Below, one piece after another: positions 2,635 to 15,766 of a stretch of DNA of 64,000 nucleotides. A model generated the notes under the pieces. It searched no databases, was not told where the DNA came from, and saw only the letters and a program-made list of their open reading frames with translations. Where the stretch lies: assembly GCA_046706745.1 (NCBI GenBank), contig JBJKPC010000003.1:1280-65279 (forward strand), given 5' to 3'. Made by a program: the position numbers and the translations under genes. Positions within the stretch are counted from its first letter, which is position 1. The number at the start of each line of letters is the position of its first letter. The DNA is from Candidatus Kryptoniota bacterium. Its GTDB lineage: Bacteria; Bacteroidota; Ignavibacteria; Kryptoniales; JAKASW01.

Positions 2635-2904
2635 AATGACTTTCCCGCAACATTACCTATCTCGGATACAGCTAACGCCACAATATAATAAAAGAGAGCA
2701 AGCGATCGCACATCCTGGATACGGAGGCAAGTCTTTCTCCCGATCTATACAAAAAAATCTCTGAAGGGCAGCCTGCTTCGTCTGGACAAGTAATACAAAG
2801 TTTCTTATCATAAATACAGTTCAAGGCATTGCGGCCTTTATCGCCGGACACGGACATCACGCTCCGGAGAGGATCGCGAGGCTTCCACCAAGAAGGAGAA
2901 CGTG

Positions 2905-3312
2905 ATGGCGTTGTTTGACTGGAGCGATGAATACAGTGTCCGTGTAACCGAAATGGACGAACAGCATAGAAAGCTTGTCGCGTTGATCAACGAGCTGAGC
3001 GAGTCTATTGGGAATGGGAACGAACATGAGGTCATTAAGCAGACACTCGACAAACTGCTGGATTACACGGCGTACCACTTCTTAACAGAAGAGCGTCTCC
3101 TCGAGAAGAACGGGTACCCGGGGTTGCGCAAGCAGAAAGAAGAGCACGATACACTGTCATGGCGGGTCCTCGATATGAGAAGCAGATATTACAGCGGTGA
3201 GGGTGTGGAGCCGAATGAAGTGCTGGTTTTTCTCACGGGTTGGCTGAAGAATCACCTTCTCTTCTCCGACAAGCAATACGCTGCTTATCTCAACTCTAAG
3301 GGAGTATTTTGA
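2905..3312 (+). CDS. bacteriohemerythrin (hemerythrin-like metal-binding protein)
   Basis: MALFDWSDEYSVRVTEMDEQHRKLVALINEL... and the later YTAYHFLTEERLL and EEH motifs are the classic hemerythrin His/Glu ligand pattern. AAGGAG lies 6 nt upstream of ATG 2905 (the ORF track starts at GTG 2902). Confidence 0.9.
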   Translation: MALFDWSDEYSVRVTEMDEQHRKLVALINELSESIGNGNEHEVIKQTLDKLLDYTAYHFLTEERLLEKNGYPGLRKQKEEHDTLSWRVLDMRSRYYSGEGVEPNEVLVFLTGWLKNHLLFSDKQYAAYLNSKGVF

Positions 3313-3479: not shown

Positions 3480-4979
3480 CTATCTGATCGTCATTACCTG
3501 TTCTTCGAAGATCTTCCGAAAATGGAATCCGTATATCGCGAAGGTAATTGCGAGTGGGAATAGTTTCGGCCTCGTAAACAGTGACCAGAAGAACAGGCGC
3601 CAGTAATAGACCCGCTCTTTCGCGATGACCCCGAGCAGAAGCGTGGATTTCAGAAAAGCCTTGATGTCGGCGGCGCTGACTCTGAATACTTTAGCTTGAG
3701 GCGGTTTGAAATCGCGCATAAAATTCTTCACCCGGTGATAATACTCTTTCGGCGAGTAGATTCTGCCGACGATGCTTTTGTAACCGTCTATAAGAATCTC
3801 GCGGTTCATCTTCGGGATGAAGTTCATTGATAAATCGGTATTGTTTCCCGAAAAAACGTGAAGGAGCCTCCCCTCGCTCATGAGCCTCTTGTACAGTTTG
3901 GTCCCTTTTGGAGCGTTCAGAAGTCCGACCATTGCAGTCACGATGCCCGTGTCCTGAATAAATTCGGTCAGCCGATCGAAAATCTGAACGGGGTCGACAT
4001 CGAACCCGACTATGAAACCGCCCTGAACCTGCATACCAAACCGCTGGATCTTCCTGACACTCTCGGCGAGGTCCCTGCTCTTGTTCGGGATCTTCTTGCA
4101 TTCCTGCAGGCTTTCCTCATTTGGGGATTCAATCCCGACGAACACTGCGTTGAATCCGGCCCGGACCATCAGTGTCATCAACTCTTCGTCGTCAGCGGAA
4201 TTCAGAGATACCTCGGTATTGAAATAAAACGGATGTCTGTTCCTGTCCATCCATTGAATGACCGAAGGAAGGATCTCCTTCTTGAGCTTGTTTCTATTCC
4301 CGATAAAGTTGTCGTCGACGAAAAACACGCTCCCTTTCCAGCCCTGGTTACGCAAGCTGTCGAGTTCTGCGATCACCTGTTGATTCGTCTTTGTCCGCGG
4401 AACTCGGCCGTAAAGCACCGTTATGTCGCAGAATTCACAATCGTACGGACAACCCCTCGAATACTGGAGATTCATGGAGGCATAATTCTTGAGTTTGATC
4501 AGGTCCCACTTCGGCACAGGTGTGGAGGACACGTCAGCAAAGTCGGAGGATGAATAGAAGTGTTTCGGAGTGCCGAGGGCGAGATCATCGAGGAACGGCT
4601 TCAGCGTGATTTCCGCCTCGTTCAGCACGAGATGATCGACCTCATCGAACTCATCGTAATAAGAGGTGAACAGCGGGCCGCCCGCTACGGTCTTGCGTCC
4701 GAGCTTTCTGCATCGCGTTATCACCGCTTTAGCGGACTCCCTTTGCACCGTCATCGCACTTATGAAAACGTAGTCCGCCCATTCTATTTCTTCGTCGGAC
4801 AGTGAGTCCACATTGAGATCGACGAGCTTCTTTTCCCATTCATCGGGCACCATCGATGCAACGGTTAGGAGGCCGAGCGGCGGGAATGCCGCCTTCTTCG
4901 AAATGAATTTCAACGCGTGGCGAAAACTCCAGAACGTATCGGGGTAACGCGGATAGACGAAAAGAATCTTCATTGGCAT
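3480..4979 (-). CDS. B12-binding-domain radical SAM protein with DUF4070-type C-terminal tail
   Basis: 499 aa. The N-terminal KILFVYPRYPDTFWSF...PLGLLTVASM is a cobalamin-binding-domain pattern. The CxxxCxxC cluster is SRGCPYDCEFCD. The C-terminal hydrophobic tail (YYWRLFFWSLFTRPKLFPLAITFAIYGFHFRKIF) is typical of this subfamily. Confidence 0.9.
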   Translation of the reverse strand: MPMKILFVYPRYPDTFWSFRHALKFISKKAAFPPLGLLTVASMVPDEWEKKLVDLNVDSLSDEEIEWADYVFISAMTVQRESAKAVITRCRKLGRKTVAGGPLFTSYYDEFDEVDHLVLNEAEITLKPFLDDLALGTPKHFYSSSDFADVSSTPVPKWDLIKLKNYASMNLQYSRGCPYDCEFCDITVLYGRVPRTKTNQQVIAELDSLRNQGWKGSVFFVDDNFIGNRNKLKKEILPSVIQWMDRNRHPFYFNTEVSLNSADDEELMTLMVRAGFNAVFVGIESPNEESLQECKKIPNKSRDLAESVRKIQRFGMQVQGGFIVGFDVDPVQIFDRLTEFIQDTGIVTAMVGLLNAPKGTKLYKRLMSEGRLLHVFSGNNTDLSMNFIPKMNREILIDGYKSIVGRIYSPKEYYHRVKNFMRDFKPPQAKVFRVSAADIKAFLKSTLLLGVIAKERVYYWRLFFWSLFTRPKLFPLAITFAIYGFHFRKIFEEQVMTIR

Positions 4980-5076
4980 CCCATCTTTATCGTCTAAAAG
5001 TAATCAATCGCAAATCAGCTGTCAAATACGATTCACACATGTGTTTCATCCGACGGGCGGTCCTCTCCGATTTCAC

Positions 5077-5105
5077 TTGACAGCATCGGAATCGTGTGTT
5101 AGTTT
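5077..5105 (+). promoter_or_regulatory. sigma70-like promoter of the tetR/ABC operon (-35 TTGACA, 17-nt spacer, -10 TAGTTT)
   Basis: Perfect TTGACA at 5077..5082, a 17-nt spacer, then TAGTTT at 5100..5105. It lies 56 nt upstream of the first tetR ATG candidate (5161) and 71 nt upstream of the annotated start (5176). The -10 box is weak. Confidence 0.45.
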
Positions 5106-5110
5106 ATTCC

Positions 5111-5130
5111 TAAACCGACCGGTCGGTTTA
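5111..5130. promoter_or_regulatory. perfect 20-bp palindrome TAAACCGACC|GGTCGGTTTA, candidate TetR operator
   Basis: I verified the reverse complement as identical over all 20 nt. It lies 6 nt downstream of the putative -10 box, the classic position for an autorepressing TetR operator. Confidence 0.55.
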
Positions 5131-5175
5131 TTTATAAACTTGTACGTGACGAAATGCCGGATGGAGAGGCGGCGT

Positions 5176-5781
5176 ATGCCGAGAAGAGTAAGCGTGGAAA
5201 ACATTGCCAAACGGAAGGAACAGATCCTGCGAGCTGCCATAAAAGCCTTTGCCCGCAACGGCCTGAAGGGAACGAGCATGAACGATATCGTACTTGAGTC
5301 CGGCATGAGCAAAGGTGCAATCTATTGGTACTACAACAGCAAGGACGAGATAATTTCCGAGCTGGTCAACTTCTTCTTCGACCCAAAGGAAATGAAAATG
5401 CTGGACCGGTTATTGTCCGAAGGCACTGCGATCGAGAGGATCAAGAAGCTCGCCGATTACACCGCCGAGGCGATGGACAAAATGAAACCTTTCCAGCCCG
5501 TCATCCAGGAATTGTATGTAATCGCGTTCAGGGATGCACAAACGAAGAAGATGGCTACAAAGAGCTTTCAGGAGTCGACATCCCTGCTCGAAAGAATCAT
5601 CGATTACGGAGTGAAGAAAAAGGAATTCAAGCGTGTCGATGCTCATCAGGTATCCGTCTCGATTATCGAGATGATGGAAGGGGCCGCAATGCTCTGGTTC
5701 CTCAACACAAAAGGTTTCGATTATGTCGCACATGTTCGTTTTGGTATAGACTTAATAATAGATGCAATCAAGGTGAATTAA
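5176..5781 (+). CDS. TetR/AcrR-family transcriptional regulator
   Basis: The N-terminal HTH reads RKEQILRAAIKAFARNGLKGTSMNDIVLESGMSKGAIYWYYNSKDEI. GGAGAGG lies 5 nt upstream of ATG 5176 (alternative ATG at 5161). The ORF-track start at 5041 is an upstream extension. Confidence 0.9.
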   Translation: MPRRVSVENIAKRKEQILRAAIKAFARNGLKGTSMNDIVLESGMSKGAIYWYYNSKDEIISELVNFFFDPKEMKMLDRLLSEGTAIERIKKLADYTAEAMDKMKPFQPVIQELYVIAFRDAQTKKMATKSFQESTSLLERIIDYGVKKKEFKRVDAHQVSVSIIEMMEGAAMLWFLNTKGFDYVAHVRFGIDLIIDAIKVN

Positions 5782-6617
5782 TGAGGGCTCTGAAGATGAC
5801 TATGCTGAGAAATACAATCCATTCCTTCGATGGGAAATCGAGCCGGGGATTCTTCCGCTCTTGGATTCCGGTGGAGACGTTTCTCCTGTTGGTGACTTTA
5901 TCTCTAGGCGGGGAAATCTACTCGAACGCTTACGCCCAAACCCCGAAGGAGATCATTCAACGGGCGGAAGACGCCATCAAAGGCAAGATCTCGAGCCATT
6001 CTATCATGGAGATGATCATCAAGACTCCCGACTATACGCGCTCCATGAAGATGGAAAGCTGGACGAGCGGAACGTCGAAGGCGCTCGTAAAAATTCTTTC
6101 GCCGGTACGCGAAGCCGGCAACCGCACTCTCAAGCTCGGAAACGATATCTGGATGTACCTGCGCAACACCGAAACCACGATCCGCATCCCCCCTTCCATG
6201 ATGCTTCAGTCCTGGAACGGTTCGGATTATACATACGACGACATGGTCAGGGAGGAGACACTTTCGAAGGACTACGACATAACGATCGTCGGAACCGAGA
6301 AAATTGGCGGTGTGGAATGCTGGAAGCTCCAGCTTCTCCCGAAGCCGAACGCACCCGTGGTATGGGGAAAGATCCTCTACTGGGTGCGCAAAGCGGACTC
6401 CTTGCCTCAGCAGGTCGAGTACTTCGACGAAAGGGGTAAGCTGATGCGTACAATGGTGATGAGCGCTTTCAGGGTCATGGGCGGTAGACTGATACCGACT
6501 GACTGGACGATGTACAATGCCGACAAGACGCATTCCACCGAGATAAAAATTGAAAAGGCGTCGTTCGATCAGAGAATACCGAGCAGCATTTTTTCGCTGA
6601 GAGAACTGGAGAGGTGA
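5781..6617 (+). CDS. LolA-like outer-membrane lipoprotein-sorting (periplasmic carrier-like) protein
   Basis: The start ATG overlaps the tetR stop (TAATG). A signal peptide ends ...SNAYAQTP. The body (KISSHSIMEMIIKTPDYTRSMKMESW...LKLGNDIWMYL...SDYTYDDM) matches my recollection of the LolA_like family that accompanies FtsX-type ABC exporters. The 5325 start in the ORF track overlaps tetR in another frame. Confidence 0.7.
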   Translation: MRALKMTMLRNTIHSFDGKSSRGFFRSWIPVETFLLLVTLSLGGEIYSNAYAQTPKEIIQRAEDAIKGKISSHSIMEMIIKTPDYTRSMKMESWTSGTSKALVKILSPVREAGNRTLKLGNDIWMYLRNTETTIRIPPSMMLQSWNGSDYTYDDMVREETLSKDYDITIVGTEKIGGVECWKLQLLPKPNAPVVWGKILYWVRKADSLPQQVEYFDERGKLMRTMVMSAFRVMGGRLIPTDWTMYNADKTHSTEIKIEKASFDQRIPSSIFSLRELER

Positions 6618-6636
6618 TGAAGAAAGCTCCGAACCA

Positions 6637-6757
6637 CAAATACCAAATTCCAAACAGAACCCAATTTCGAAACTCCAATCCACAAAGGAAACGAAGCGAG
6701 CTCTGTCTCCGGAAGTCAGGGTTTGTTATTTGGAGCTTGTTTGGAGCTTGGTATTTG
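6637..6757 (+). repeat. long-range inverted repeat in the lolA-like/permease spacer (arms 6637..6656 and 6738..6757)
   Basis: I paired it by hand base by base, giving 18 Watson-Crick pairs, 1 G-U and 1 A-C mismatch over 20 positions. The left arm is CCAA/TCC-rich and the right arm carries the TTGGA repeats. The 3' arm ends 35 nt before the permease A1 start codon. Confidence 0.6.
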
Positions 6758-6792
6758 GAACTTGGAACTTCCCCTGTGCGAGCAACGACTCC

Positions 6793-8022
6793 ATGAAACT
6801 CCTCATTCGAATTGCCTGGCGCAGTCTCTGGCGAAATCGGAGACGCTCCATCCTCGCCATTTCGGCGATCGCATTTGCCGTGGCTTTGGCTATTGTCAGG
6901 CTCGGCTTCGACGACGGCGTATTCGCTCTCTCGCTGAGGACCGCGGTCAGATCATCTACGGGCTATCTGCAGATCCAGAAGACCGGTTACAACGAAAACC
7001 CGACCCTTCAAAAAAGCTTCACCGTAGGTCCACGCATCGAGTCCGTATTGGAGTCCGATCCCGCGCTCAACGGCAGCTCCCCTAGGATCCAGGCGGGCGC
7101 GCTTATCAGCTACCGCAATCAATCACTCGGAGTAATGATAACGGGGGTCGATCCGAAAACGGAGGACCTCATCACCGATTTCCCCAAGAAGGTGATCGAC
7201 GGGAGATTTCTTGCGAGCGATTCGACTCCCGACATCGTGGTTGGATACAAGCTCCTTAGAAATCTTCGGGCTCAAGTCGGCGATTCGGTCGTTGTTCTTG
7301 CGCAGGGATTCGATGGCGTTCTCGACAATATGTTTGTACGAATAGTCGGGACCTTCAGGACCGGTTCCGACGAGTTCGACCGCACCGGTGCTTTCATGAG
7401 CATCCCGGTTCTGCAGAATTTCCTCTCTATGGGCAAGAGGATCAATGCCCTGGCGCTGTCGGTGAAGGATCCCTCGGACGCGGAAAGGATCGCCGGTTCA
7501 CTCGATCCGGTTCTCAAACCACTTGGACTTGTGGCGGTACCCTGGGAAAGACTTCTTCCGCAGCTAAGGCAAACCATGAGTTTCAGCCATGCCGCTCATT
7601 TGATCTTTCTGATACTTTTATTCATAGTGGTCGGCTTCGGTATACTCAACGCCCTGCTGATGTCGGTCACCGAGCGCTTCCGGGAGTTCGGCGTAATGCT
7701 TTCAGTTGGCATGTCCAACCTGAAGCTAGCCGCGACTGTAGCCATAGAAATAGTATTCATGATCCTGATAGGTTTCGTGGTCGGCAACGTCGTCGGAGGG
7801 GGGCTTAATTACTACTTTGCCGTCCATCCGATCGTTATGGGAGGCAACATAGCAGCGTATGTTCACGAGTGGGGGTTTCAGCCGATTGTCCCCTCTTCCC
7901 TTTCTCCCGGAATCTTCGTCACCGCAGGTCTGATCGTGGCCGCAATATCGGTGCTCGCAGCAGTGTATCCGCTGTGGCGTGTAGCAAAGCTGGAGCCGTT
8001 GAAAGGCATAAGGTACACTTGA
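6793..8022 (+). CDS. ABC transporter permease, FtsX/MacB family (paralog A1)
   Basis: The N-terminus MKLLIRIAWRSLWRNRRRS is the FtsX-family signature. A large periplasmic domain follows, then the C-terminal FtsX TM bundle (ILNALLMSVTERFREFGVMLSVGMS). The start is taken at ATG 6793, M22 of the track ORF. Confidence 0.9.
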   Translation: MKLLIRIAWRSLWRNRRRSILAISAIAFAVALAIVRLGFDDGVFALSLRTAVRSSTGYLQIQKTGYNENPTLQKSFTVGPRIESVLESDPALNGSSPRIQAGALISYRNQSLGVMITGVDPKTEDLITDFPKKVIDGRFLASDSTPDIVVGYKLLRNLRAQVGDSVVVLAQGFDGVLDNMFVRIVGTFRTGSDEFDRTGAFMSIPVLQNFLSMGKRINALALSVKDPSDAERIAGSLDPVLKPLGLVAVPWERLLPQLRQTMSFSHAAHLIFLILLFIVVGFGILNALLMSVTERFREFGVMLSVGMSNLKLAATVAIEIVFMILIGFVVGNVVGGGLNYYFAVHPIVMGGNIAAYVHEWGFQPIVPSSLSPGIFVTAGLIVAAISVLAAVYPLWRVAKLEPLKGIRYT

Positions 8023-8250
8023 AATGAAATTCGCAATCATAAATTCTGAACTCGAAACAAATGCTAATTCCAAAATATCATATTCCTGTCCAAACTCGTC
8101 TCTCGGTTGTTTCGGAATTTCGACTTTTGGATTTTGGACTTGTCCCGCTCAATTATCGTATATGGGAATGCGGGATACTGTAAGCCGGAATTTAGGATTT
8201 GGAGTCTCGTGTTTAGGCTTTTTGAATGGGATGACAAGGGGGACTTTAAA
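8023..8250 (+). other. conserved inter-permease spacer element, copy 1 (non-coding; candidate structured leader or internal regulatory element)
   Basis: Over the 231 nt of 8024..8254, which span this spacer, there are 40 mismatches and no indel against 10875..11105 (manual alignment). It is richer in TCC in the 5' half and GGA in the 3' half. It ends in AAGGGGGA-N7-GTG, the start of permease B1. Confidence 0.6.
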
Positions 8251-9480
8251 GTGATCGGCATAATTGCCTGGCGCAACATACTCAGAAACAAACGACGGTC
8301 CCTGATCCTGATCGCGTCCATAGTGGTCGGGGTTGTCGCCCTGGTCCTGACGGAAGGATTTGCCGTCGGGATGCTGCACCAGATGCTGACGAACCAGATC
8401 GGTGCCGATGCGGGATATATCCAGATTCACAGGAACGGGTACCAGTCGGATCCGACGCTCGATAATTCAATGAGCGATCCGCAGGCAATTCGGAAAATAC
8501 TGCGGAAAGAATCCGGCACGCTGAACTACGCCGAGCGTCTCAGGGTGTTCGGACTCGTCAGCAGCGCTTACAACTCGTATGGAGTGTCGATCGTGGGGAT
8601 TATCCCTAAAGAGGAGAAAAAGATCTCTACAATTTCGAAATATGTCCTCAAGGGAGCGTATCTCTCGGGAGAACCGGGGCAGATACTGATAAGCGCTTCC
8701 ATTGCGGAGAAGCTTAGGGTCGGACTCGGCGACAAGATTGTGATCATGGCGTCCCGGGAAGACGGCAGCATCGGCTCAGAGGCATGCAGGATAACGGGCA
8801 TTTACGAAACCTACAACTCAGGTTTCGACCAGTCCCATGTTTATATTCCCATGCAGACTGCCGTACAGATGCTCGATGCGAAAGGACTCGTTTCCGAGTT
8901 CGTAGTGAACCCTCTCGACCCCCAAAAAACCGACCTTGTTGCAGAAACCATCCGGCACGAGGTGGTAGAGTTGCGAGGTCCGAACCACTACGAGGTTCTT
9001 ACCTACGAGCAAATGCTCCCGTTGCTGGTCTCGCAGCTGGCGCTTTACAAGGAGGCTCTTTATCTTATCTCGGTTATCATCGCAATAGCTCTCGTCTTTG
9101 GAATAGTCGACAGTATGATGATGGCAGTTATGGAACGGACACATGAATTCGGCGTGTCGATGGCCATAGGAATGGCAAGTAACAAGATTTTCACAATGGT
9201 GATGACCGAGGCTTTTTTTGTCGCAGTCATAGGAACCGCAATAGGCGTCGCCGCTTCTTATGGAATCATGATCCCACTTTCGCACACAGGCTGGAATCTA
9301 TCGATGTTCTCAGACAGCATGAGATCAGTCGGCGTAGGAAGCGTCATTTATCCCGCGTTCAATGCCTCGGTACTGATGCAAAGCGTCGTCATAATCCCGA
9401 TCGTGACGCTCCTCGGGGCGATTTATCCGGCGTTGAAAGCGATCAAGCTGCAGCCTGTAGACGCGATAAGAGCAGTCTAA
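8251..9480 (+). CDS. ABC transporter permease, FtsX/MacB family (paralog B1)
   Basis: GTG 8251 is preceded by AAGGGGGA. The N-terminus (V/M)IGIIAWRNILRNKRRS is followed by a periplasmic domain and then the FtsX bundle (VDSMMMAVMERTHEFGVSMAIGMA). The track ORF starts further upstream at TTG 8107, inside the spacer. Confidence 0.85.
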   Translation: MIGIIAWRNILRNKRRSLILIASIVVGVVALVLTEGFAVGMLHQMLTNQIGADAGYIQIHRNGYQSDPTLDNSMSDPQAIRKILRKESGTLNYAERLRVFGLVSSAYNSYGVSIVGIIPKEEKKISTISKYVLKGAYLSGEPGQILISASIAEKLRVGLGDKIVIMASREDGSIGSEACRITGIYETYNSGFDQSHVYIPMQTAVQMLDAKGLVSEFVVNPLDPQKTDLVAETIRHEVVELRGPNHYEVLTYEQMLPLLVSQLALYKEALYLISVIIAIALVFGIVDSMMMAVMERTHEFGVSMAIGMASNKIFTMVMTEAFFVAVIGTAIGVAASYGIMIPLSHTGWNLSMFSDSMRSVGVGSVIYPAFNASVLMQSVVIIPIVTLLGAIYPALKAIKLQPVDAIRAV

Positions 9481-9482
9481 AC

Positions 9483-9510
9483 TGGAATATTAGAATTATG
9501 GAATATTGTC
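9483..9510 (+). repeat. 8-nt phased repeat TGGAATAT-TAGAATTA-TGGAATAT starting 3 nt after the B1 stop
   Basis: Read directly. The unit-initial T falls at 9483, 9491 and 9499. A second doublet, TGGATTGA-TGGATCAT, lies at 9585..9600. Confidence 0.7.
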
Positions 9511-9628
9511 CGAAGGACGCTTCGGGGACTAATGTTGAGACACGCAGAACGCGTATCGAAATCCCACACTTCGCGGGAGATTCCTGGATTGATGGATCAT
9601 ACGGCGACGGCAAGCTGAAGGAGCTGAC

Positions 9629-10873
9629 ATGCTGCTGATTCGACTGGCGTGGCGGAGCTTGTGGCGAAACTGGAGGCGATCGATCATAGCGATGGCGGCG
9701 GTTATTTTTGCCATTGCCTTGTCTATAATTCAACGAGGCATGCAGTATGGAACCTACGCCGAGACGATCAGTACCGCGGTCCGCGCATCAACCGGTTATC
9801 TACAAATCCAAAAAGAGGGCTACAACAAGAGTCCGACGCTCGAGAAGAGTTTCGTTATGACGCCCGCCATAGAGAAAGCCATAGAGGATTCACATTCCAT
9901 CGACGGAAGCTCACCCAGAATCGAAACGGAGGCTCTTCTGAGCTACCATGACCAGTCGCTCGGCGCCATGATAATGGGAGTGGCGCCAAAGACGGAGGGG
10001 GAGGTGACCGATTTCCCGAGCAAAGTAGTGCAGGGACGCTTCCTCTCCGTCGATTCATCGGCCGCCGAAAGCAACGTGGCCCAAATCGTCGTGGGCGACA
10101 AACTACTGCAGAATCTGGGCGCGCAGGTCGGGGACTCCGTGGTTGTGCTCGCACAGGGATTCGACGGAATGCTGGGCAACATGTTTGCCAGGATAGTGGG
10201 CACTTTCAGGACCGGTTCAACCGAGTTCGACCGGATGGGCGTCTTCATGAACATCCATTCTCTCCAGGATTTCCTAAATATGGGAAACAGGATAAATGCG
10301 ATCGCGATATCTGTAAGGGATCCCAATGATATTCAACGACTCTCCGAGAAGCTGAGCAGGACGCTCAAGACCCGGGGACTGGTCGCACTCCCCTGGCAGG
10401 ATCTTCTGCCGCAACTTAAGCAGATGATAGAGCTTGACGACTCAAGCGGCGTGCTATATATAATAATACTTCTTTTCGTCGTGGGCTTCGGAATCCTCAA
10501 TACCGTGCTTATGTCGATCACCGAGCGTTTCAGGGAATACGGCGTAATGCTTTCACTCGGCATGTCGCAGGAAAAGTTAGTGCTGGCCGTTGCGCTGGAA
10601 GTTTTCTTCATGCTGGTAATCGGGTTCATCGTCGGGAACGGCATCGGTGTAGCCGTTAACTACTACTGGGTTCACCATCCTATTGTGATCGGCGGAGATA
10701 TGGCAAAGCTATATCAGGAGTACGGATTCGCTCCCGTCTTCGTGTCTTCCCTTTCGTTCAAGGTATTTCTCGATTCGACTCTGACGATCCTCGGGATCTC
10801 TGTAGTAGCCGCCGTTTACCCGCTCTGGCGTGTCCTGCGTCTGGAACCGCTGAAAGGTATAAGGTACACTTGA
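9629..10873 (+). CDS. ABC transporter permease, FtsX/MacB family (paralog A2)
   Basis: MLLIRLAWRSLWRNWRRS..., with GAAGGAG 6 nt upstream of the ATG. It is co-linear with A1 throughout. Confidence 0.9.
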   Translation: MLLIRLAWRSLWRNWRRSIIAMAAVIFAIALSIIQRGMQYGTYAETISTAVRASTGYLQIQKEGYNKSPTLEKSFVMTPAIEKAIEDSHSIDGSSPRIETEALLSYHDQSLGAMIMGVAPKTEGEVTDFPSKVVQGRFLSVDSSAAESNVAQIVVGDKLLQNLGAQVGDSVVVLAQGFDGMLGNMFARIVGTFRTGSTEFDRMGVFMNIHSLQDFLNMGNRINAIAISVRDPNDIQRLSEKLSRTLKTRGLVALPWQDLLPQLKQMIELDDSSGVLYIIILLFVVGFGILNTVLMSITERFREYGVMLSLGMSQEKLVLAVALEVFFMLVIGFIVGNGIGVAVNYYWVHHPIVIGGDMAKLYQEYGFAPVFVSSLSFKVFLDSTLTILGISVVAAVYPLWRVLRLEPLKGIRYT

Positions 10874-11101
10874 AATGAAATTCGACGTTCTAAATTCGAA
10901 ACTCGAAACAAATATTAATTCCACAATTTCATGTTCCTCTCAAAGCTCATCTCTTAATTGTTTCGGAATTTCGACTCTTGGATTTTTGATTCGTCCCGCT
11001 CAATTATCGTATACGGGCATGCGGCATGCCGCAAGGCGGCATTTAGGATTTAGAGTTTCGTGTTTGGACTCTTTGAACGGGATGAAAAGGGGGACTTTCG
11101 A
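10874..11101 (+). other. conserved inter-permease spacer element, copy 2
   Basis: Same length and boundaries as 8023..8250 (TGA-A-ATG at the 5' end, GTGA overlap at the 3' end), at about 83% nt identity. Confidence 0.6.
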
Positions 11102-12316
11102 GTGATCGGCACAATTGCCTGGCGAAACATACTTCGCAACAGGAGGAGGTCGTTCATCCTCATACTTTCGATCATGGTCGGCGTTATCGCAATGATACTC
11201 ACCGATGCGCTGTCGATAGGCATGGTCCGTCAGATGCTGGTGAACCAGATCGGGGCGGACGCCGGTTATATACAGATACACAAGCTAGGTTATTTTACCG
11301 ACCCTGCACTCAAGAACTCAATCGTCTACACCGCCCCTGTTCGCACCGCACTCGCCCCGGACAGTGCCGGATGCAATATATCCGAACGCCTTAGGACATT
11401 CGGCCTGATCAGCAGTGCCTACAATTCGTCAGGCGTCTCGATCGTCGGTATAATTCCGCATGAAGAAAAACGAGTGACTACGGTGCACAGCTACATTGTG
11501 AATGGAACATATCTCACAAATACTCCCGGTAGTATAATCATCAGTACGACTACGGCGGAGAAATTGAAAGTGGGGCTCGGCGACAAAGTAGTTATTATGG
11601 CCTCACGCATCGGAGGAAGCATCGGGTCGGAGGCATGCCGCGTGGTCGGGCTCTTCGAAACTTTCGATTCCGGATTCGACCAGACGCATGTTTATATTCC
11701 GCTTCAGACCGCACAGCAGATGCTCGGCGCTCCGGGAAGAGTATCCGAATTCGTGGTCAATCCGGTCGATGCCCAGAAGACAGACGCAATTGCTGCCCGC
11801 CTCAGAAACGATCTTCCGTCGGGTTTTGAAGTATTGACTTACAAACAGATGCTTCCACTTCTGGTTATGCAGACCCAGCTGTACGACGAGATGATCTATT
11901 TCTTTTATGCAATCATAGCCATTGCCCTCATCTTCGGCATAATCAACACCATGTTGATGGCAGTGATGGAAAGGACGCACGAGTTGGGAATCGATATGGC
12001 GATCGGCATGTCTCACAGGCGAATTTTCGCGATGATACTGATCGAAGCATTTTACCTGGGTCTCGCCGGCACCGCGGTCGGGCTTGCGATCTCCTTCGCT
12101 ATTTATATTCCGCTCGCACACAGCGGATGGAACCTGGCTGCGTTCTCCGAGAGTCTGAAATCGATAGGAGTCGGGACGACTATTTACCCCGTCCTTACGG
12201 CATCGTCGCTGATCAACACGATAGTGATTATCCCCTTTGCTGCCGTATTGGGGGCGATCTACCCGGCAATACGCGCGATAAAGCTGCAACCGGTTGACGC
12301 GATCAGAGCGAGTTAG
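11102..12316 (+). CDS. ABC transporter permease, FtsX/MacB family (paralog B2)
   Basis: GTG 11102 is homologous to the B1 start. The sequence reads (V/M)IGTIAWRNILRNRRRS...INTMLMAVMERTHELGIDMAIGMS. The track ORF begins at GTG 11060. Confidence 0.85.
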   Translation: MIGTIAWRNILRNRRRSFILILSIMVGVIAMILTDALSIGMVRQMLVNQIGADAGYIQIHKLGYFTDPALKNSIVYTAPVRTALAPDSAGCNISERLRTFGLISSAYNSSGVSIVGIIPHEEKRVTTVHSYIVNGTYLTNTPGSIIISTTTAEKLKVGLGDKVVIMASRIGGSIGSEACRVVGLFETFDSGFDQTHVYIPLQTAQQMLGAPGRVSEFVVNPVDAQKTDAIAARLRNDLPSGFEVLTYKQMLPLLVMQTQLYDEMIYFFYAIIAIALIFGIINTMLMAVMERTHELGIDMAIGMSHRRIFAMILIEAFYLGLAGTAVGLAISFAIYIPLAHSGWNLAAFSESLKSIGVGTTIYPVLTASSLINTIVIIPFAAVLGAIYPAIRAIKLQPVDAIRAS

Positions 12317-12356
12317 TGGAATGATGGAACAATGGAATGTCGGAATAATGGGAACT
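12317..12356 (+). repeat. five phase-locked 8-nt units TGGAATGA-TGGAACAA-TGGAATGT-CGGAATAA-TGGGAACT
   Basis: Read directly. The first unit starts on the base after the B2 stop codon (TAG 12314..12316), and units begin at 12317, 12325, 12333, 12341 and 12349. Confidence 0.8.
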
Positions 12357-12517
12357 CTGATTTTAGGATCGACGGGTTTATACGTTAAAGAGGGATGTCT
12401 CAACCGGTGGTCTCGACTAGTCCGCTTTTTTTATCCGGGAAATAAGCGAGAATTTGAACGCACGAAGCTGAGCGGTAACCGGCCACAGCTGACTGCGAGG
12501 CAAGGAGCAACTTAAGC

Positions 12518-13222
12518 ATGAACTCAAGGAACACAAATGAAATCGTCCGCGTCGAAGGCGTGAGAAAAGTTTATCAAGATAACGGAGTACCGGTGGACGC
12601 ACTGCGCGGGATCAATCTCACCGTTTCATCGGGTGACTTCTCGGTTATTGCTGGTCCGTCGGGGTCGGGAAAGACAACTCTCCTGAACATTGTCGGCACG
12701 CTCGACAAGCCTTCCGAAGGGAAGGTGTTTCTCGATGGAGAGGACGTGGCATCGAAGTCCAGACGAGAACTCGCCGATATAAGGTTGAGGAAGATCGGTT
12801 TCGTCTTCCAGGCCTACAACCTCAACCCCGTTCTGAGCGCTCTGGAAAACGTGGAGTTTACGATGATGCTTCGCGGTATCGATTCCGCGGAGAGGAAACG
12901 TAAGGGTCTTGCCCTGCTCGAGGAGCTCGGCATTGGTGAACTCGCCCACAAGCGCCCAAACGAAATGAGCGGCGGCCAGCAGCAGCGTGTCGCCATCGCG
13001 CGCGCAATCTCCAACGATCCGCGGCTCGTCCTAGCCGACGAGCCTACTGCCAACCTCGACTCCGAAACGTCGGACAGGCTTCTGGACCTCATGGAAAAGC
13101 TCAACCATGAAGACGGGATAACGTTTGTATTTTCGTCCCACGACCCGCAGGTCATCGAGCGTGCGCACAGGCTGCTCATACTTAAAGACGGCCAGATAGT
13201 GACTGACAAGGTCAACGCGTGA
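12518..13222 (+). CDS. ABC transporter ATP-binding protein (LolD/MacB-type)
   Basis: Walker A GPSGSGKTTLLN, signature LSGGQQQRVAIARA, Walker B LVLADEPTANLD and an H-loop SSHD. Confidence 0.95.
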   Translation: MNSRNTNEIVRVEGVRKVYQDNGVPVDALRGINLTVSSGDFSVIAGPSGSGKTTLLNIVGTLDKPSEGKVFLDGEDVASKSRRELADIRLRKIGFVFQAYNLNPVLSALENVEFTMMLRGIDSAERKRKGLALLEELGIGELAHKRPNEMSGGQQQRVAIARAISNDPRLVLADEPTANLDSETSDRLLDLMEKLNHEDGITFVFSSHDPQVIERAHRLLILKDGQIVTDKVNA

Positions 13223-13224
13223 CG

Positions 13225-13300
13225 GATGAAGATGGGATAGTGGAAGAGTGGAATATTGGAACGGTGGAATGATGGATTGCGGGTTTGATGGAGTGCAGGT
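13225..13300 (+). repeat. about nine phase-locked 8-nt units of consensus TGGAANNN
   Basis: GATGAAGA-TGGGATAG-TGGAAGAG-TGGAATAT-TGGAACGG-TGGAATGA-TGGATTGC-GGGTTTGA-TGGAGTGC. The unit-initial T falls at 13233, 41, 49, 57, 65, 73 and 89. The array begins 3 nt after the ATPase stop (TGA 13220..13222). Confidence 0.8.
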
Positions 13301-14580
13301 TGCGCATTTGTCGGCATAAGCAAAAAGAAATAAGGCGGTTGTTTCGCCGTCCATTCCCAGTATGCCGTGATCGCGCGCCGAAGTGCGGCGTTTCGTCACG
13401 CAGGCGAGTTCCGTTCTCCTTTTTCCTTTTCCCGGTTCTCTGTCTCTTCGGAGTCTCCTCCGCCTTCGCGCAAACGCCGCTTTTCCCTGGAACCGAACTG
13501 AATTTCTCCGGCTATGTCATGGAAATGCCGGTGTATGAAAACATCCAACAGACGTTGGCCCAGCTGACAAACACATCGAGTTCCGGATTTGAGAATCTCG
13601 CCAGATTAAGACTCCGGCCAACCCTGCACATCGGCGACAATACGAAGATTGGTCTCGAATACGAGATCGACGGACTGTATCACTCCGAGAATGTCTCATT
13701 CGGTTTGATCGCAACGACTCCCCTACGGCAGGTAGTCAGCCTGCGCTGGAGCCCTGTCGACACCAGACATGTAACAGTTTCCGACTATGTCGACAGACTC
13801 TACCTTGACGAGGAATTCTCTTTCGGAAAGTTTGTCCTCGGAAGACAACGTATAAGCTGGGGAGTCGGGCGCGTATGGCAGCCGACCGATATTTTCAATC
13901 CAATAAATCCCGCCAACTTCGGCAAAATCGAAAAAGACGGAGCCGACGCTGCCTCGATGAAATTCTACCTCGGACAGCTCACCGATCTTCAACTTGTCTA
14001 CAATGCGGAATATCATTTCAGCTCTTCGAATTACGCAGCAAGATTCAGGACCAATGTCTTGGGATACGATCTGGCCGTCCTGGGCGGATCGGTTGACCGG
14101 AGGCTCATCGGTGGAGGAGATTTTGCAGGCAATGTCTGGACCGCAGGGATACGTGGGGAAGCGCTTATATCGCAGGATCCTTCGAAGTCGCACGACTATT
14201 ACATAAGATGGATACTAGGAATGGATTACCAGTTCACGGACAAACTCTATGCACTATTCGAGTACTATCACAACGGACAGGGTACTCTCAACCGTTTTGC
14301 ATACGATTTAACCGGCCTTTATGAAGGAAGGATCCTCAACGTCGCGAAAGATTACCTCGCGTTGAGCGGGACGTACCAGCTGACGTCCCTGGTTACCGTG
14401 ATGCTGTCATCCATTTCAAATTTCAATGACGGAAGCGGTTATATCTCCGGTACCGTCAGCTATTCGGCAAGCGACAACGCGTCGCTTGCTATCGGTTCGC
14501 TTTATGCTTTCGGAAAAACATTCACCGAATACTGGTACTATCCTCAGGCCTACTACATAAAACTTGAAACTTATTTCTGA
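13288..14580 (+). CDS. outer-membrane beta-barrel (porin-like) protein of unknown function
   Basis: A signal-like segment RRRVPFSFFLFPVLCLFGVSSAFAQ is followed by alternating beta-strand-like sequence, a GRQRISWGVGRVWQPTDIFNPINP motif and a C-terminus ...YYIKLETYF (terminal Phe). The start codon is uncertain (ATG 13288 or TTG 13339), and the N-terminal extension overlaps the repeat array. Confidence 0.7.
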   Translation: MECRLRICRHKQKEIRRLFRRPFPVCRDRAPKCGVSSRRRVPFSFFLFPVLCLFGVSSAFAQTPLFPGTELNFSGYVMEMPVYENIQQTLAQLTNTSSSGFENLARLRLRPTLHIGDNTKIGLEYEIDGLYHSENVSFGLIATTPLRQVVSLRWSPVDTRHVTVSDYVDRLYLDEEFSFGKFVLGRQRISWGVGRVWQPTDIFNPINPANFGKIEKDGADAASMKFYLGQLTDLQLVYNAEYHFSSSNYAARFRTNVLGYDLAVLGGSVDRRLIGGGDFAGNVWTAGIRGEALISQDPSKSHDYYIRWILGMDYQFTDKLYALFEYYHNGQGTLNRFAYDLTGLYEGRILNVAKDYLALSGTYQLTSLVTVMLSSISNFNDGSGYISGTVSYSASDNASLAIGSLYAFGKTFTEYWYYPQAYYIKLETYF

Positions 14581-14638
14581 CAGGTGATCCGGTTGACTGC
14601 CGATCCGACCTAAAGAAGCCAGCCCCGCTCAAGCCGGC

Positions 14639-15766
14639 TCAAAAAGGCAGGCGCCAGACGCTCCCGTCACTCATCTGAATGAAAATGTAGTTGCCGGCCT
14701 GGCTGAAGGCGTAGACCCCGGCATTGGGCAAATTCCCAACTATATCTGCCCAGCTTCCGCCGTCGTTCCTGGAAAGAAAGATACCGTTGTCATCGATCAC
14801 AACCAGACTCGAATCCGAAGCTGCGATGCCGATCCCCGACTGTGCACTGCCGGGCAGGTTGCCGCTTATGTCCGTCCAGCTCAAGCCGTTGTTTTGGGAA
14901 AGATAAACCTGCGTCCCGAGAGCTGCGGCGTACAATTTCCCGTTATGGAGGAGCAAAGAAGCGACTGTCGGAGACCCGGAGAAGTAGGGGCTCTGGTTCA
15001 CCAGCCCGCTGTCGTTTGCTATCCAACTCTGACCTCCGTCGCTCGAGAGAAACGTACCGTTCTGGGTACCCGTGATGATGTTCGGGCCCGCAGAGACGAT
15101 GCTGTACGCGCTGCTCCCATAGCTTATCCCGTCATTCGTGGCGTGCCATGTTCTACCGCCATCGGTCGATTTGAAGATTCCGTTCGAAGATGTGCCGGCA
15201 AAGATCGTGGAATCGACCGATGCCATACAGAGTATAGTCTGATAGAAACCGGCGTAGGACGTACTCAATCCGGAGTCCGCTGCCACCCATGTAGAACCGC
15301 TGTCGCTTGAAATGAAAATGCCGTTTCCGCTGCTGTAGTCCCCGATGAAAAGTTTCCCGTTAATGGCAGCAATCGTATATCCGCCTGAAGGAAGGGCTGT
15401 GTCAACCTCTGTCCAGCTGCTGCCGTTGTCGATGGAGCGGAAAATGCCATAGTTGCCGGCTGCGTACATCACTGATCCGAGCATCGCTATATTGTAGAAC
15501 CCGGTCAGACCGGTCACCTGAGTCCAGCTTGTGGAGCCCGTGTTCGCCGGCGGTCCGACTACACTGGTGGCTTGGTTGCATCCTGCCAGAGCAAAAATTG
15601 AAACAAGGGAAAGCAACGCCAGCAGACGGCGCTTCCCGGATCTGCCGGAAAGACCAGTTGCGAATTCAAGGGAAGTGGCGCGAACGGCCCCAGATATCAA
15701 TTCTCTACCACTCTCAGTTGCACCCTCCGAATCCATTATCGATCTTAACTCCCTTTTGAACATCAT
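14639..15766 (-). CDS. BNR/Asp-box repeat beta-propeller lipoprotein
   Basis: Lipobox LVSIFALAGC, plus six SxDxGxxW-type repeats (SIDNGSSW, SSDSGSTW, STDGGRTW, SSDGGQSW, SQNNGLSW, SRNDGGSW). The start may be the internal Met at 15736. Confidence 0.85.
   Translation of the reverse strand: MMFKRELRSIMDSEGATESGRELISGAVRATSLEFATGLSGRSGKRRLLALLSLVSIFALAGCNQATSVVGPPANTGSTSWTQVTGLTGFYNIAMLGSVMYAAGNYGIFRSIDNGSSWTEVDTALPSGGYTIAAINGKLFIGDYSSGNGIFISSDSGSTWVAADSGLSTSYAGFYQTILCMASVDSTIFAGTSSNGIFKSTDGGRTWHATNDGISYGSSAYSIVSAGPNIITGTQNGTFLSSDGGQSWIANDSGLVNQSPYFSGSPTVASLLLHNGKLYAAALGTQVYLSQNNGLSWTDISGNLPGSAQSGIGIAASDSSLVVIDDNGIFLSRNDGGSWADIVGNLPNAGVYAFSQAGNYIFIQMSDGSVWRLPF

Follow-up and report, generated by a model that had tools for sequence, protein, structure and literature searches.

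A TetR-controlled operon for a putative chaperone-mediated transport system across the cell envelope of a Candidatus Kryptoniota bacterium

In a 64-kb stretch of DNA from a Candidatus Kryptoniota bacterium (contig JBJKPC010000003.1), which was analysed as a whole and is called the window below, the locus at 5077-14580 on the + strand is one real operon under the control of a TetR-family repressor. Its genes code for the repressor, a LolA-like periplasmic carrier, four permeases and one ATPase of an ATP-binding cassette (ABC) transporter, and a predicted outer-membrane beta-barrel. The operon probably encodes a chaperone-mediated trans-envelope transport system, which would take a hydrophobic cargo from the inner to the outer membrane. 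Such a route had been proposed in an earlier, sequence-only reading of the locus, and on balance homology and gene context speak for it. The system is an accessory, inducible one; it is the ABC-driven counterpart of the DUF1302/DUF1329/RND gene clusters and not the housekeeping Lol pathway.

The operon and its repressor control

The nine co-directional elements claimed in the sequence-only reading were all found on the + strand. The features of the operon are the following (nt, nucleotides; aa, amino acids).

5077-5105, + strand: sigma-70-type promoter (-35 TTGACA at 5077-5082, 17-nt spacer, -10 TAGTTT at 5100-5105)
5111-5130, no strand: putative TetR operator TAAACCGACCGGTCGGTTTA, a perfect 20-bp palindrome that begins 6 nt past the -10 hexamer
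5176-5781, + strand: gene of a TetR-family repressor, 201 aa, ATG at 5176 with GGAGAGG ahead of it
5781-6617, + strand: gene of the LolA-like periplasmic carrier, 278 aa, PF17131
6793-8022, + strand: permease A1, 409 aa, type VII ABC, MacB_PCD and FtsX domains
8209-9480, + strand: permease B1, 423 aa, MacB_PCD and FtsX domains, GTG start inferred from the alignment with B2
9629-10873, + strand: permease A2, 414 aa, MacB_PCD and FtsX domains
11060-12316, + strand: permease B2, 418 aa, MacB_PCD and FtsX domains, GTG start
12518-13222, + strand: ABC ATPase, 234 aa, ABC_tran domain, LolD-like
13288-14580, + strand: outer-membrane 18-stranded beta-barrel according to the predicted model, 430-aa precursor, remote relative of DUF1302

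The genes had been described as tightly packed. This holds for tetR and the LolA-like gene, whose stop and start codons do overlap in the reported TAATG (5779-5783), but not for the remaining genes, which are separated by spacers of 175, 186, 148, 186, 201 and 65 nt. In related genomes the equivalent genes abut or overlap. No terminator-like site was found on the + strand between the operon genes in a promoter/terminator scan of the window, a scan which performed no better than on shuffled sequence and which did not pick up the conserved promoter. The promoter is absent from this generic list because its -10 hexamer matches at just three of the six positions. Rfam gave no match in 4900-14800.

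The promoter and the palindromic operator that had been proposed ahead of tetR are both present, and both are conserved in the close loci. Across 12 related loci, TTGAC never changes in the -35 hexamer, nor do the T, the A and the last T of the -10 hexamer, and the 17-nt spacer is variable. The palindrome TAAACCGACCGGTCGGTTTA is unique in the window even if up to three mismatches are allowed, and it did not occur in shuffled sequences. It is kept upstream of tetR in 11 close loci (in an alignment of 12 that includes the promoter region), where it varies chiefly in the two central bases, with single outer-arm changes in five loci. The tetR product matched the Pfam families TetR_N (57.2 bits, cut-off 24) and TetR_C_17 (30.7 bits), its start agrees with the MPR... 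starts of the orthologs, and no NCBIfam equivalog was reached at its cut-off. As judged from these alignments, the footprint is that expected of a TetR repressor blocking the promoter of its own operon, and its conservation in related loci supports the TetR gating suggested earlier.

Another palindrome, TTGACTGAACGTTTAGTCAA, was found in the distant loci, where tetR is divergent; at least 13 of them have kept it immediately ahead of the LolA-like gene (among them L005 5065-5084, L024 5568-5587, L027 5924-5943 and L036 6016-6035). Each of the two TetR lineages has a putative operator of its own. These conserved putative operators provide a direct handle for finding the inducer.

Components of the predicted transport machine

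The identity of the 278-aa protein as LolA-like is well borne out by profile and sequence comparisons. It matched PF17131 (LolA_like, now also named TP_0789-like) with 190.6 bits (cut-off 30) over profile positions 1-184 of 184, and among the PDB sequences it matched 9tp6 (7e-19), 3buu (8.6e-13), 4z48 (2.4e-11) and 3bk5 (4.2e-9), all of which are solved LolA-superfamily structures. Besides PF17131 there was one weak match to MucB_RseB; PF03548, the LolA family proper, gave no match at E<=0.01. The public gene call has the identical 278-aa product. The signal peptide ends in ...SNAYA, directly before QTPKEI, and has no lipobox; a lipobox-like motif is also missing in 56 of the 58 carrier orthologs. 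Since a signal peptide is present and a lipobox is absent, the carrier is read as a soluble periplasmic protein. The carrier of the Vibrio module described below had been considered as an ortholog of 3bk5, which was rejected, as the two are not orthologous.

The four permeases and the single ATPase that had been named in the locus were confirmed by their matches to MacB_PCD, FtsX and ABC_tran. Each of the four permeases matched both PF12704 (MacB_PCD, 52-63 bits, cut-off 27) and PF02687 (FtsX, 49-66 bits, cut-off 25.5), in keeping with the layout of type VII permeases, namely an N-terminal transmembrane (TM) helix, a MacB-type periplasmic core and a C-terminal FtsX module of three TM helices. 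The nearest solved relatives are LolF, MacB, LolC and LolE in the case of A1, and LolF, LolE and MacB in the case of B1. The ATPase matched ABC_tran with 116 bits in Pfam, and its translation contains the Walker A motif GPSGSGKT, the signature MSGGQQQR, the Walker B motif LVLADEPT with the catalytic Glu, and the H-loop SHD. Its best NCBIfam match was LolD (TIGR02211) with 222.4 bits, under the cut-off of 307.75. Similarly, the permeases reached 105-116 bits on the lolCE model TIGR02212, where the cut-off is 362, and 26-69 bits on the LolE and LolC models, where the cut-offs are 439-540.

By sequence comparison, the A1-B1-A2-B2 array is a LolC/LolE-like heterodimer duplicated in tandem, with just one ATPase gene for the two pairs. 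A 2851-nt direct repeat covers the four permease genes; A1 and A2 are 60% identical, B1 and B2 62%, and the A and B proteins 26%. The tandem duplication is absent from the description given in the earlier reading. In neighbour-joining trees of the B genes of about a dozen related genomes, the copy-1 and copy-2 sequences fall into two sister clades; thus the duplication is old within the lineage, with both pairs retained. One relative (L014) has only the copy-1 permease pair left. In most close relatives the second pair outscores the first against the window copies, and in most of the distant two-permease loci the single A gene is closer by score to A2 than to A1. The two A-B junctions, 7990-8289 and 10841-11140, each consisting of the 3' end of A, the spacer and the 5' end of B, are 84% identical, compared with about 72% for the neighbouring coding DNA. 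By eye, the two junctions are also more alike within a genome than between genomes in L007 (5163-5300 and 7766-7900) and L010 (4817-4930 and 7552-7665). This likeness suggests either gene conversion at the junctions or a constrained element.

The 430-aa protein ends in ...YYIKLETYF, and the signal peptide of its precursor ends in ...SSAFA, before QTP. No Pfam match was obtained for this protein and for 46 close relatives. A first structural model, made with 47 close homologs and with the long N-terminus kept, had a predicted local distance difference test score (pLDDT) of 72.6 and template modelling scores (TM-scores) of 0.30 to porins. It was replaced by a final model of the mature protein, for which 117 diverse family members were used as the alignment. 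The final model has 18 long antiparallel strands, with a pLDDT of 95.8 and a predicted template modelling score (pTM) of 0.91; the top conserved motif, GRQRISWGxGRxW.PTD.FNP.NP, lies in a segment which has no regular secondary structure in the model. When the model was compared with the PDB by Foldseek, 229 matches at E<=1e-3 were found, and among the matches listed (50 of the 229) all were outer-membrane barrels or designs built on such barrels. The best TM-scores among those listed were 0.60 for AlgE, 0.57 for OccAB1 and 0.54 for the C. jejuni MOMP. The model therefore agrees with the earlier proposal that the operon ends with a barrel gene.

The barrel family is large: a profile search of 1.84 billion representatives gave 4115 clusters at E<=1e-3 and 670 at E<=1e-30, and the analysis thereby delimits a large outer-membrane barrel family that has no Pfam model. 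Among the 117 wider representatives, 21 had sub-threshold or near-threshold matches to PF06980 (DUF1302), with a best E of 6.9e-6, and a few matched Wzi, Alginate_exp or porin families. The Burkholderia homolog scored 21.2 bits on PF06980, where the gathering score is 23.2, and the DUF1302 protein of Haliovirga passes it with 31.1 bits. In an hhalign comparison the profile of the barrel family was aligned with this Haliovirga protein over 266 columns with a probability of 95.6% and an E of 1.3e-8. DUF1302 itself has been reported as an 18-strand barrel with AlgE and an Acinetobacter Occ channel as the closest PDB structures (ECLIPSE, PMC13499233). Because of the 18-strand model, the AlgE and OccAB1 matches, the hhalign probability and the shared hits, the 430-aa protein is predicted to be a barrel of the outer membrane that is remotely related to DUF1302 and shorter than it. 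A search of PDB sequences with the profile of this family was discarded, as it gave just spurious Cas12i matches.

The start region of the barrel gene (13288-13480) deserves a separate remark. In the public gene call (P0001, 353 aa) the protein begins at an internal Met and has no signal peptide. From 13291 up to the core of the signal peptide the frame contains neither ATG nor GTG nor TTG, and the last ATG of the repeat at 13226-13290 is the sole usable start codon. Since no start codon lies nearer to the signal-peptide core, the precursor seems, from the sequence, to carry a basic N-terminal extension of about 40 aa, with an uncertain start position. This extension is poorly conserved, and close homologs show in it a recurring R-S-P-F-S-like motif.

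Conservation of the gene set and the transport model

Relatives of the barrel were sought in one genome per species. At least 480 genomes hold one; the best 80 loci were examined, and gene order was counted in those 58 whose upstream sequence is 5.5 kb or longer. The order LolA-like gene, A, B, ATPase, barrel was found in 41 of the 58, a doubled permease pair in 10 and a split or extra A gene in 3; a clear LolA-like open reading frame is missing in 3 loci (it is fragmented in one of them), and the order is rearranged in 1. Overall, the order is retained in about 55 of the 58 loci, and three homolog look-ups found the same neighbouring genes at each. Nearly every relative examined keeps the gene set, and the synteny on which the original proposal depended is thus real. 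The hosts are Kryptoniota-like 'Bacteroidetes' metagenome-assembled genomes, Ignavibacteria, Melioribacteraceae and Calditrichota. Four permeases together with a co-directional tetR occur only in the close clade, where the barrel identity is 63-82%.

Outside the Fibrobacterota-Chlorobiota-Bacteroidota (FCB) group, Vibrio campbellii and a Persicobacter plasmid share the five-gene order. On plasmids of Burkholderia thailandensis and Ralstonia, the order is LolA-like gene, ATPase, fused 830-aa permease, barrel homolog; the barrel homologs are 30-35% identical (E 7e-39 to 2e-39) and are followed directly by a gene of a UbiB/ABC1-family kinase (B. thailandensis L087 10114-11814, R. pickettii L088 9835-11532). 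The surroundings on the Burkholderia and Ralstonia plasmids also hold genes of FtsH, ppk2, a VTT/DedA-like protein, an isoprenylcysteine carboxyl methyltransferase and a metal P-type ATPase. Because copies lie on Burkholderia and Ralstonia plasmids, and Proteobacteria carry the canonical LolABCDE, the system appears to be accessory in Proteobacteria. The coupling of a LolCDE-like ABC extractor to a carrier and a barrel extends over hundreds of species of Kryptoniota, Ignavibacteria and Calditrichota, and also to Vibrio, Burkholderia, Ralstonia and Persicobacter.

Two MMPL-driven modules were found on the plasmid pHIC of Haliovirga abyssi (L090 2363-8801 and 12971-16738; L092 2465-3703). The first has the composition TetR, MMPL, LolA-like protein, ferredoxin and barrel homolog, the second DUF1302, MMPL and LolA-like protein. 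Since both modules pair a barrel with an MMPL and a LolA-like protein, the two barrel types hold equivalent positions. Furthermore, since MMPL is used here instead of ABC, the carrier-barrel pair is the constant part of the system and the inner-membrane engine can be exchanged.

In the mechanism that we propose, the TetR repressor would occupy the palindrome just past the -10 hexamer until a ligand, presumably hydrophobic, frees the DNA. The operon would then yield a type VII (MacB/LolCDE-class) ABC machine that consists of a LolD-like ATPase dimer and a heterodimeric permease, A1B1 and A2B2 being possibly alternative permease pairs that use the one shared ATPase. ATP-driven motion of the periplasmic domains of the permeases would pull from the outer leaflet of the inner membrane a cargo that is hydrophobic and probably non-protein, such as a lipid, an isoprenoid-like molecule or a xenobiotic. 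This cargo would be taken up by the soluble LolA-like carrier, which would cross the periplasm and dock on the 18-stranded DUF1302-like barrel, and the barrel would put the cargo into the outer membrane or let it through. The basis for an ATP-driven extraction at the periplasmic face is provided by the type VII ABC transporters LolCDE, MacB and YbbAP (PMC8333309, PMC5985334, PMC12646458). The hand-over of the cargo to the carrier and the docking on the barrel are proposed in analogy to LolA and to the DUF1302-DUF1329 pair, whose two proteins have been predicted with high confidence to form a complex (PMC13499233). The outward direction is assumed because this ABC class acts outward.

Several points weigh against this model. 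The cargo and the direction of transport are both inferred from homology and context. DUF1302 and DUF1329 genes have also been linked to the use of hydrophobic substrates: those of P. putida are important when it grows on fatty esters, and an esterase function has been proposed for them (bioRxiv 10.1101/2020.07.04.188060), which would fit uptake. The barrel of the window has no match to PF06980, and its link to DUF1302 exists at the profile level only. Finally, the spacers of 65-201 nt with their repeats could hide internal promoters or processing sites.

A second, specialised Lol pathway was considered, in which a subset of lipoproteins would be extracted and ferried by the LolA-like protein, and the barrel would replace LolB. 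The closeness of the permeases to the solved LolF, LolE and LolC, the top NCBIfam names (lolCE and LolD) and the membership of the carrier in the LolA superfamily would fit such a pathway, as would the several LolA paralogs reported in Bacteroidota (PMC11885536) and a comparable proposal for Borrelia BBJ23-29 (PMC13078400). However, the equivalog scores are far under the cut-offs (105-116 vs 362 for lolCE, 222 vs 308 for LolD), the carrier belongs to PF17131 and not to PF03548, ligand-type TetR control suits a small-molecule system better, and no lipoprotein gene is conserved in the related loci examined. In addition, Haliovirga drives the carrier-barrel pair with an MMPL pump, and no MMPL pump is known to move lipoproteins. 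A lipoprotein pathway is thus unlikely.

The growth data cited above bear also on the opposite direction of transport. If the barrel admitted hydrophobic nutrients, the LolA-like protein bound them in the periplasm and the ABC complex imported them, then the requirement of DUF1302/DUF1329 for the growth of P. putida on fatty esters (bioRxiv 10.1101/2020.07.04.188060) and for growth on monoterpenes (PMC6394551) would be explained, and a substrate-inducible TetR control would fit catabolism. The characterised members of the MacB/FtsX class, however, are extruders or mechanotransducers that work on the periplasmic side and have no transmembrane import path (PMC5985334, PMC12646458), and no catabolic genes are conserved beside the module across the 80 loci. 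These observations make uptake unlikely, but it stays in contention. Mechanotransduction as in FtsEX-EnvC would mean that the ABC complex switches the LolA-fold protein, which in turn regulates an envelope enzyme or the barrel. In favour of this, FtsEX is of the same ABC class (PMC7668044), and GerS, which has the LolA fold, activates an enzyme allosterically and is not a carrier (bioRxiv 10.1101/2025.01.13.632879). Since neither a hydrolase nor another enzyme gene is conserved in the module, and both the MMPL swap and the strict tie to a barrel of 18 strands point to transport, we consider this very improbable. That the genes are chance neighbours or several unrelated transcription units, as the spacers of 65-201 nt between most window genes might suggest, is hardly credible, given an order kept in about 55 of 58 loci over several phyla, genes that abut or overlap in relatives, and no terminator-like site on the + strand between them.

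A wider reading may be entertained, somewhat more tentatively: a widespread and hitherto undescribed chaperone-mediated export path for non-protein hydrophobic molecules, a 'Lol-like pathway for lipids or small molecules'. In it, interchangeable engines (type VII ABC or MMPL/RND) would load LolA-fold carriers of the PF17131 or DUF1329 type, and these would dock on DUF1302-like 18-strand barrels, a superfamily of over 4000 clusters (at 50% identity), the majority of which belong to no Pfam family. Since type VII ABC transporters work in the outward direction, the ABC-driven variant speaks for export; if the wider reading is true, this variant sets the direction as outward and would imply an export role for the DUF1302/DUF1329 systems. 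Little is understood of the way in which hydrophobic molecules beyond lipopolysaccharide, lipoproteins and bulk phospholipids get across the periplasm, and many Proteobacteria, among them nearly every P. aeruginosa strain, have kept the DUF1302/DUF1329 pair (PMC13499233). For finding the cargo, genetically tractable hosts are available in Vibrio campbellii and Burkholderia thailandensis. No paper describing the module was found in the searched literature, the nearest being the report on Borrelia BBJ23-29, which has another barrel class, and the DUF1302/DUF1329 literature; the general logic of the module is unsurprising to a specialist.

Spacer elements, flanking genes and comparison with known systems

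The spacers between the operon genes contain the following elements.

6624-6770, + strand: long imperfect hairpin in the LolA-like/A1 spacer (RNA folding)
9483-9508, + strand: period-8 TGGAAnnn repeat directly after the B1 stop codon (repeat search)
12317-12353, + strand: period-8 TGGAAnnn repeat directly after the B2 stop codon (repeat search)
13226-13290, + strand: period-8 TGGAnnnn repeat from the ATPase stop codon to the start of the barrel gene (repeat search)

The period-8 (A)TGGAnnn repeats lie on the sense strand, immediately behind the B1, B2 and ATPase stop codons. Each unit has a Shine-Dalgarno-like GGA and often an ATG together with a TAA or TGA in rotating frames. Within the window the three-unit pattern is confined to the locus, with 10 matches where 0.2 are expected. 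The equivalent spacers of close relatives hold such repeats too (L009 9123-9149, L010 8955-8997 and 9914-9948, L011 6387-6421, L016 9909-9959 and L020 9962-9988), and in relatives they often reach into the start codon of the next gene. The repeats might be a translation re-initiation or standby element, and they could represent a new cis element setting the relative translation of the subunits.

The hairpin of the LolA-like/A1 spacer has a minimum free energy of -54.5 kcal/mol, compared with -41.0 +/- 4.1 for shuffled sequences (z = -3.3; 0 of 200 shuffles was as good), and in its arms TCCAAA-type repeats pair with TTTGGA-type repeats. Similar pairing occurs in the two A-B spacers and in the ATPase-barrel region, where the folds were not significant (z = -1.4 and -0.8 for the spacers; z = -0.9, +0.4 and -1.35 for the region). 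Therefore no structural claim is made for these spacers.

Three genes flank the operon.

2902-3312, + strand: hemerythrin gene, ahead of tetR in this locus and nine close ones
3480-4979, - strand: B12-binding radical-SAM/DUF4070 gene, divergent, adjoining tetR
14639-15766, - strand: BNR/Ycf48-like beta-propeller gene (PSII_BNR 32.3 bits, Sortilin-Vps10 40.4 bits)

The radical-SAM/DUF4070 gene is situated between hemerythrin and tetR here and in L010, L011 and L015 (about 970-985 bits). It reached no NCBIfam equivalog cut-off, including those of the lipid and hopanoid radical-SAM models. The earlier statement that no biosynthetic genes flank the locus has to be softened accordingly, as this divergent gene adjoins tetR here and in three relatives. 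A link of the hemerythrin and radical-SAM neighbours to oxygen or iron sensing, or to lipid modification, is possible. Only the present locus and L011 have the BNR/Ycf48-like gene, which in both is convergent with the barrel gene; it recalls the BNR partner in DUF1302 clusters, but it is not found at the other loci. None of these hints is decisive.

Among known systems, LolCDE-LolA-LolB resembles the operon in its heterodimeric 4-TM permeases with MacB-type periplasmic domains, its separate LolD-like ATPase and its LolA-fold carrier, and also in the extraction from the inner membrane followed by hand-over to a periplasmic chaperone, which in the present case is proposed by analogy. Unlike that pathway, the operon misses the equivalog thresholds, its carrier is not a PF03548 protein and a barrel stands in place of the LolB lipoprotein; moreover, it is TetR-controlled, patchily distributed and plasmid-borne in some Proteobacteria. 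No LolB-type outer-membrane lipoprotein is encoded in the operon, where the 18-strand integral barrel is the sole predicted outer-membrane component. Membership in the canonical LolCDE-LolA pathway was rejected on account of the LolCE and LolD scores under the cut-offs and the absence of PF03548 and LolB.

With MacAB-TolC the operon shares the permease superfamily (MacB_PCD and FtsX) and, by the proposed mechanism, the acceptance of substrates from the periplasmic side. It differs in that the ATPase is a separate polypeptide and in having neither an adaptor nor a TolC-type duct; in Pfam no match to the MacA/HlyD adaptor or to the OEP (TolC-type) family was found among the eight gene products, and by TM-score the barrel is nearest the monomeric AlgE/Occ class. 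Since there is no membrane-fusion adaptor and no TolC-type factor, the assignment to the MacAB-TolC pumps was rejected. The Legionella Lit system, which is of the MacAB-TolC type, was also set aside as a relative. In the paper on YbbAP-TesA no LolA-like partners are mentioned.

The bioinformatic proposal for Borrelia BBJ23-29 (PMC13078400) also combines a MacB-like ABC complex with a LolA-like protein and a barrel. There, the barrel is of the Omp85/BamA-TamA type, the permease is homodimeric, TPR proteins are present and TetR is absent, whereas the present operon has heterodimeric permeases and a barrel of the AlgE/DUF1302 class. In Porphyromonas and Prevotella, the PG1175-81 operons are similar in having TetR, an inner-membrane exporter and adjacent hypothetical proteins, and one of their genes is annotated as 'outer membrane lipoprotein-sorting protein', like the PF17131 genes in plasmid records; they differ in having MMPL and ABC ATPases and no FtsX permeases. 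Under iron limitation, these TetR-MMPL-LolA-like operons rank with the most strongly induced genes (PMC10434189). In Haliovirga, the barrel family of the present locus is itself found with MMPL versions.

The closest comparison is with the DUF1302/DUF1329/BNR/RND clusters, for example AmeABCD of Castellaniella defragrans, Sama_1588-1591 and PP_0765/0766. AupA and AupB, considered as DUF1302/DUF1329 proteins, were not used as members, since the paper likens AupA only to FadL. The engine is of the type VII ABC class here and RND/MMPL there; according to Pfam no RND or MMPL (COG1033) gene is present in the locus. The carrier is a PF17131 protein of about 250 aa, compared with about 450 aa for DUF1329, and the mature barrel has about 365 aa and is below the PF06980 threshold, while AmeA has about 600 aa. 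A BNR/Ycf48-like protein is typical of these clusters (bioRxiv 10.1101/072470), and such a partner stands beside the barrel only here and in L011. Control is by TetR in the present operon, and a LuxR-type regulator has been reported in Pseudomonas. The likenesses concern the architecture as a whole, in that an 18-strand outer-membrane barrel, a LolA-superfamily periplasmic protein and an energised inner-membrane exporter occur together, and AlgE and OccAB1 are the nearest structures for both barrels (PMC13499233). The two are further alike in the tie to hydrophobic compounds (PMC6394551; bioRxiv 10.1101/072470): AmeABCD, composed of DUF1302, DUF1329, BNR and RND proteins, has been tied to monoterpene efflux and tolerance (PMC6394551), and from the cofitness of the DUF1302, DUF1329, BNR and RND genes Price et al. 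proposed the export of an envelope component (bioRxiv 10.1101/072470).

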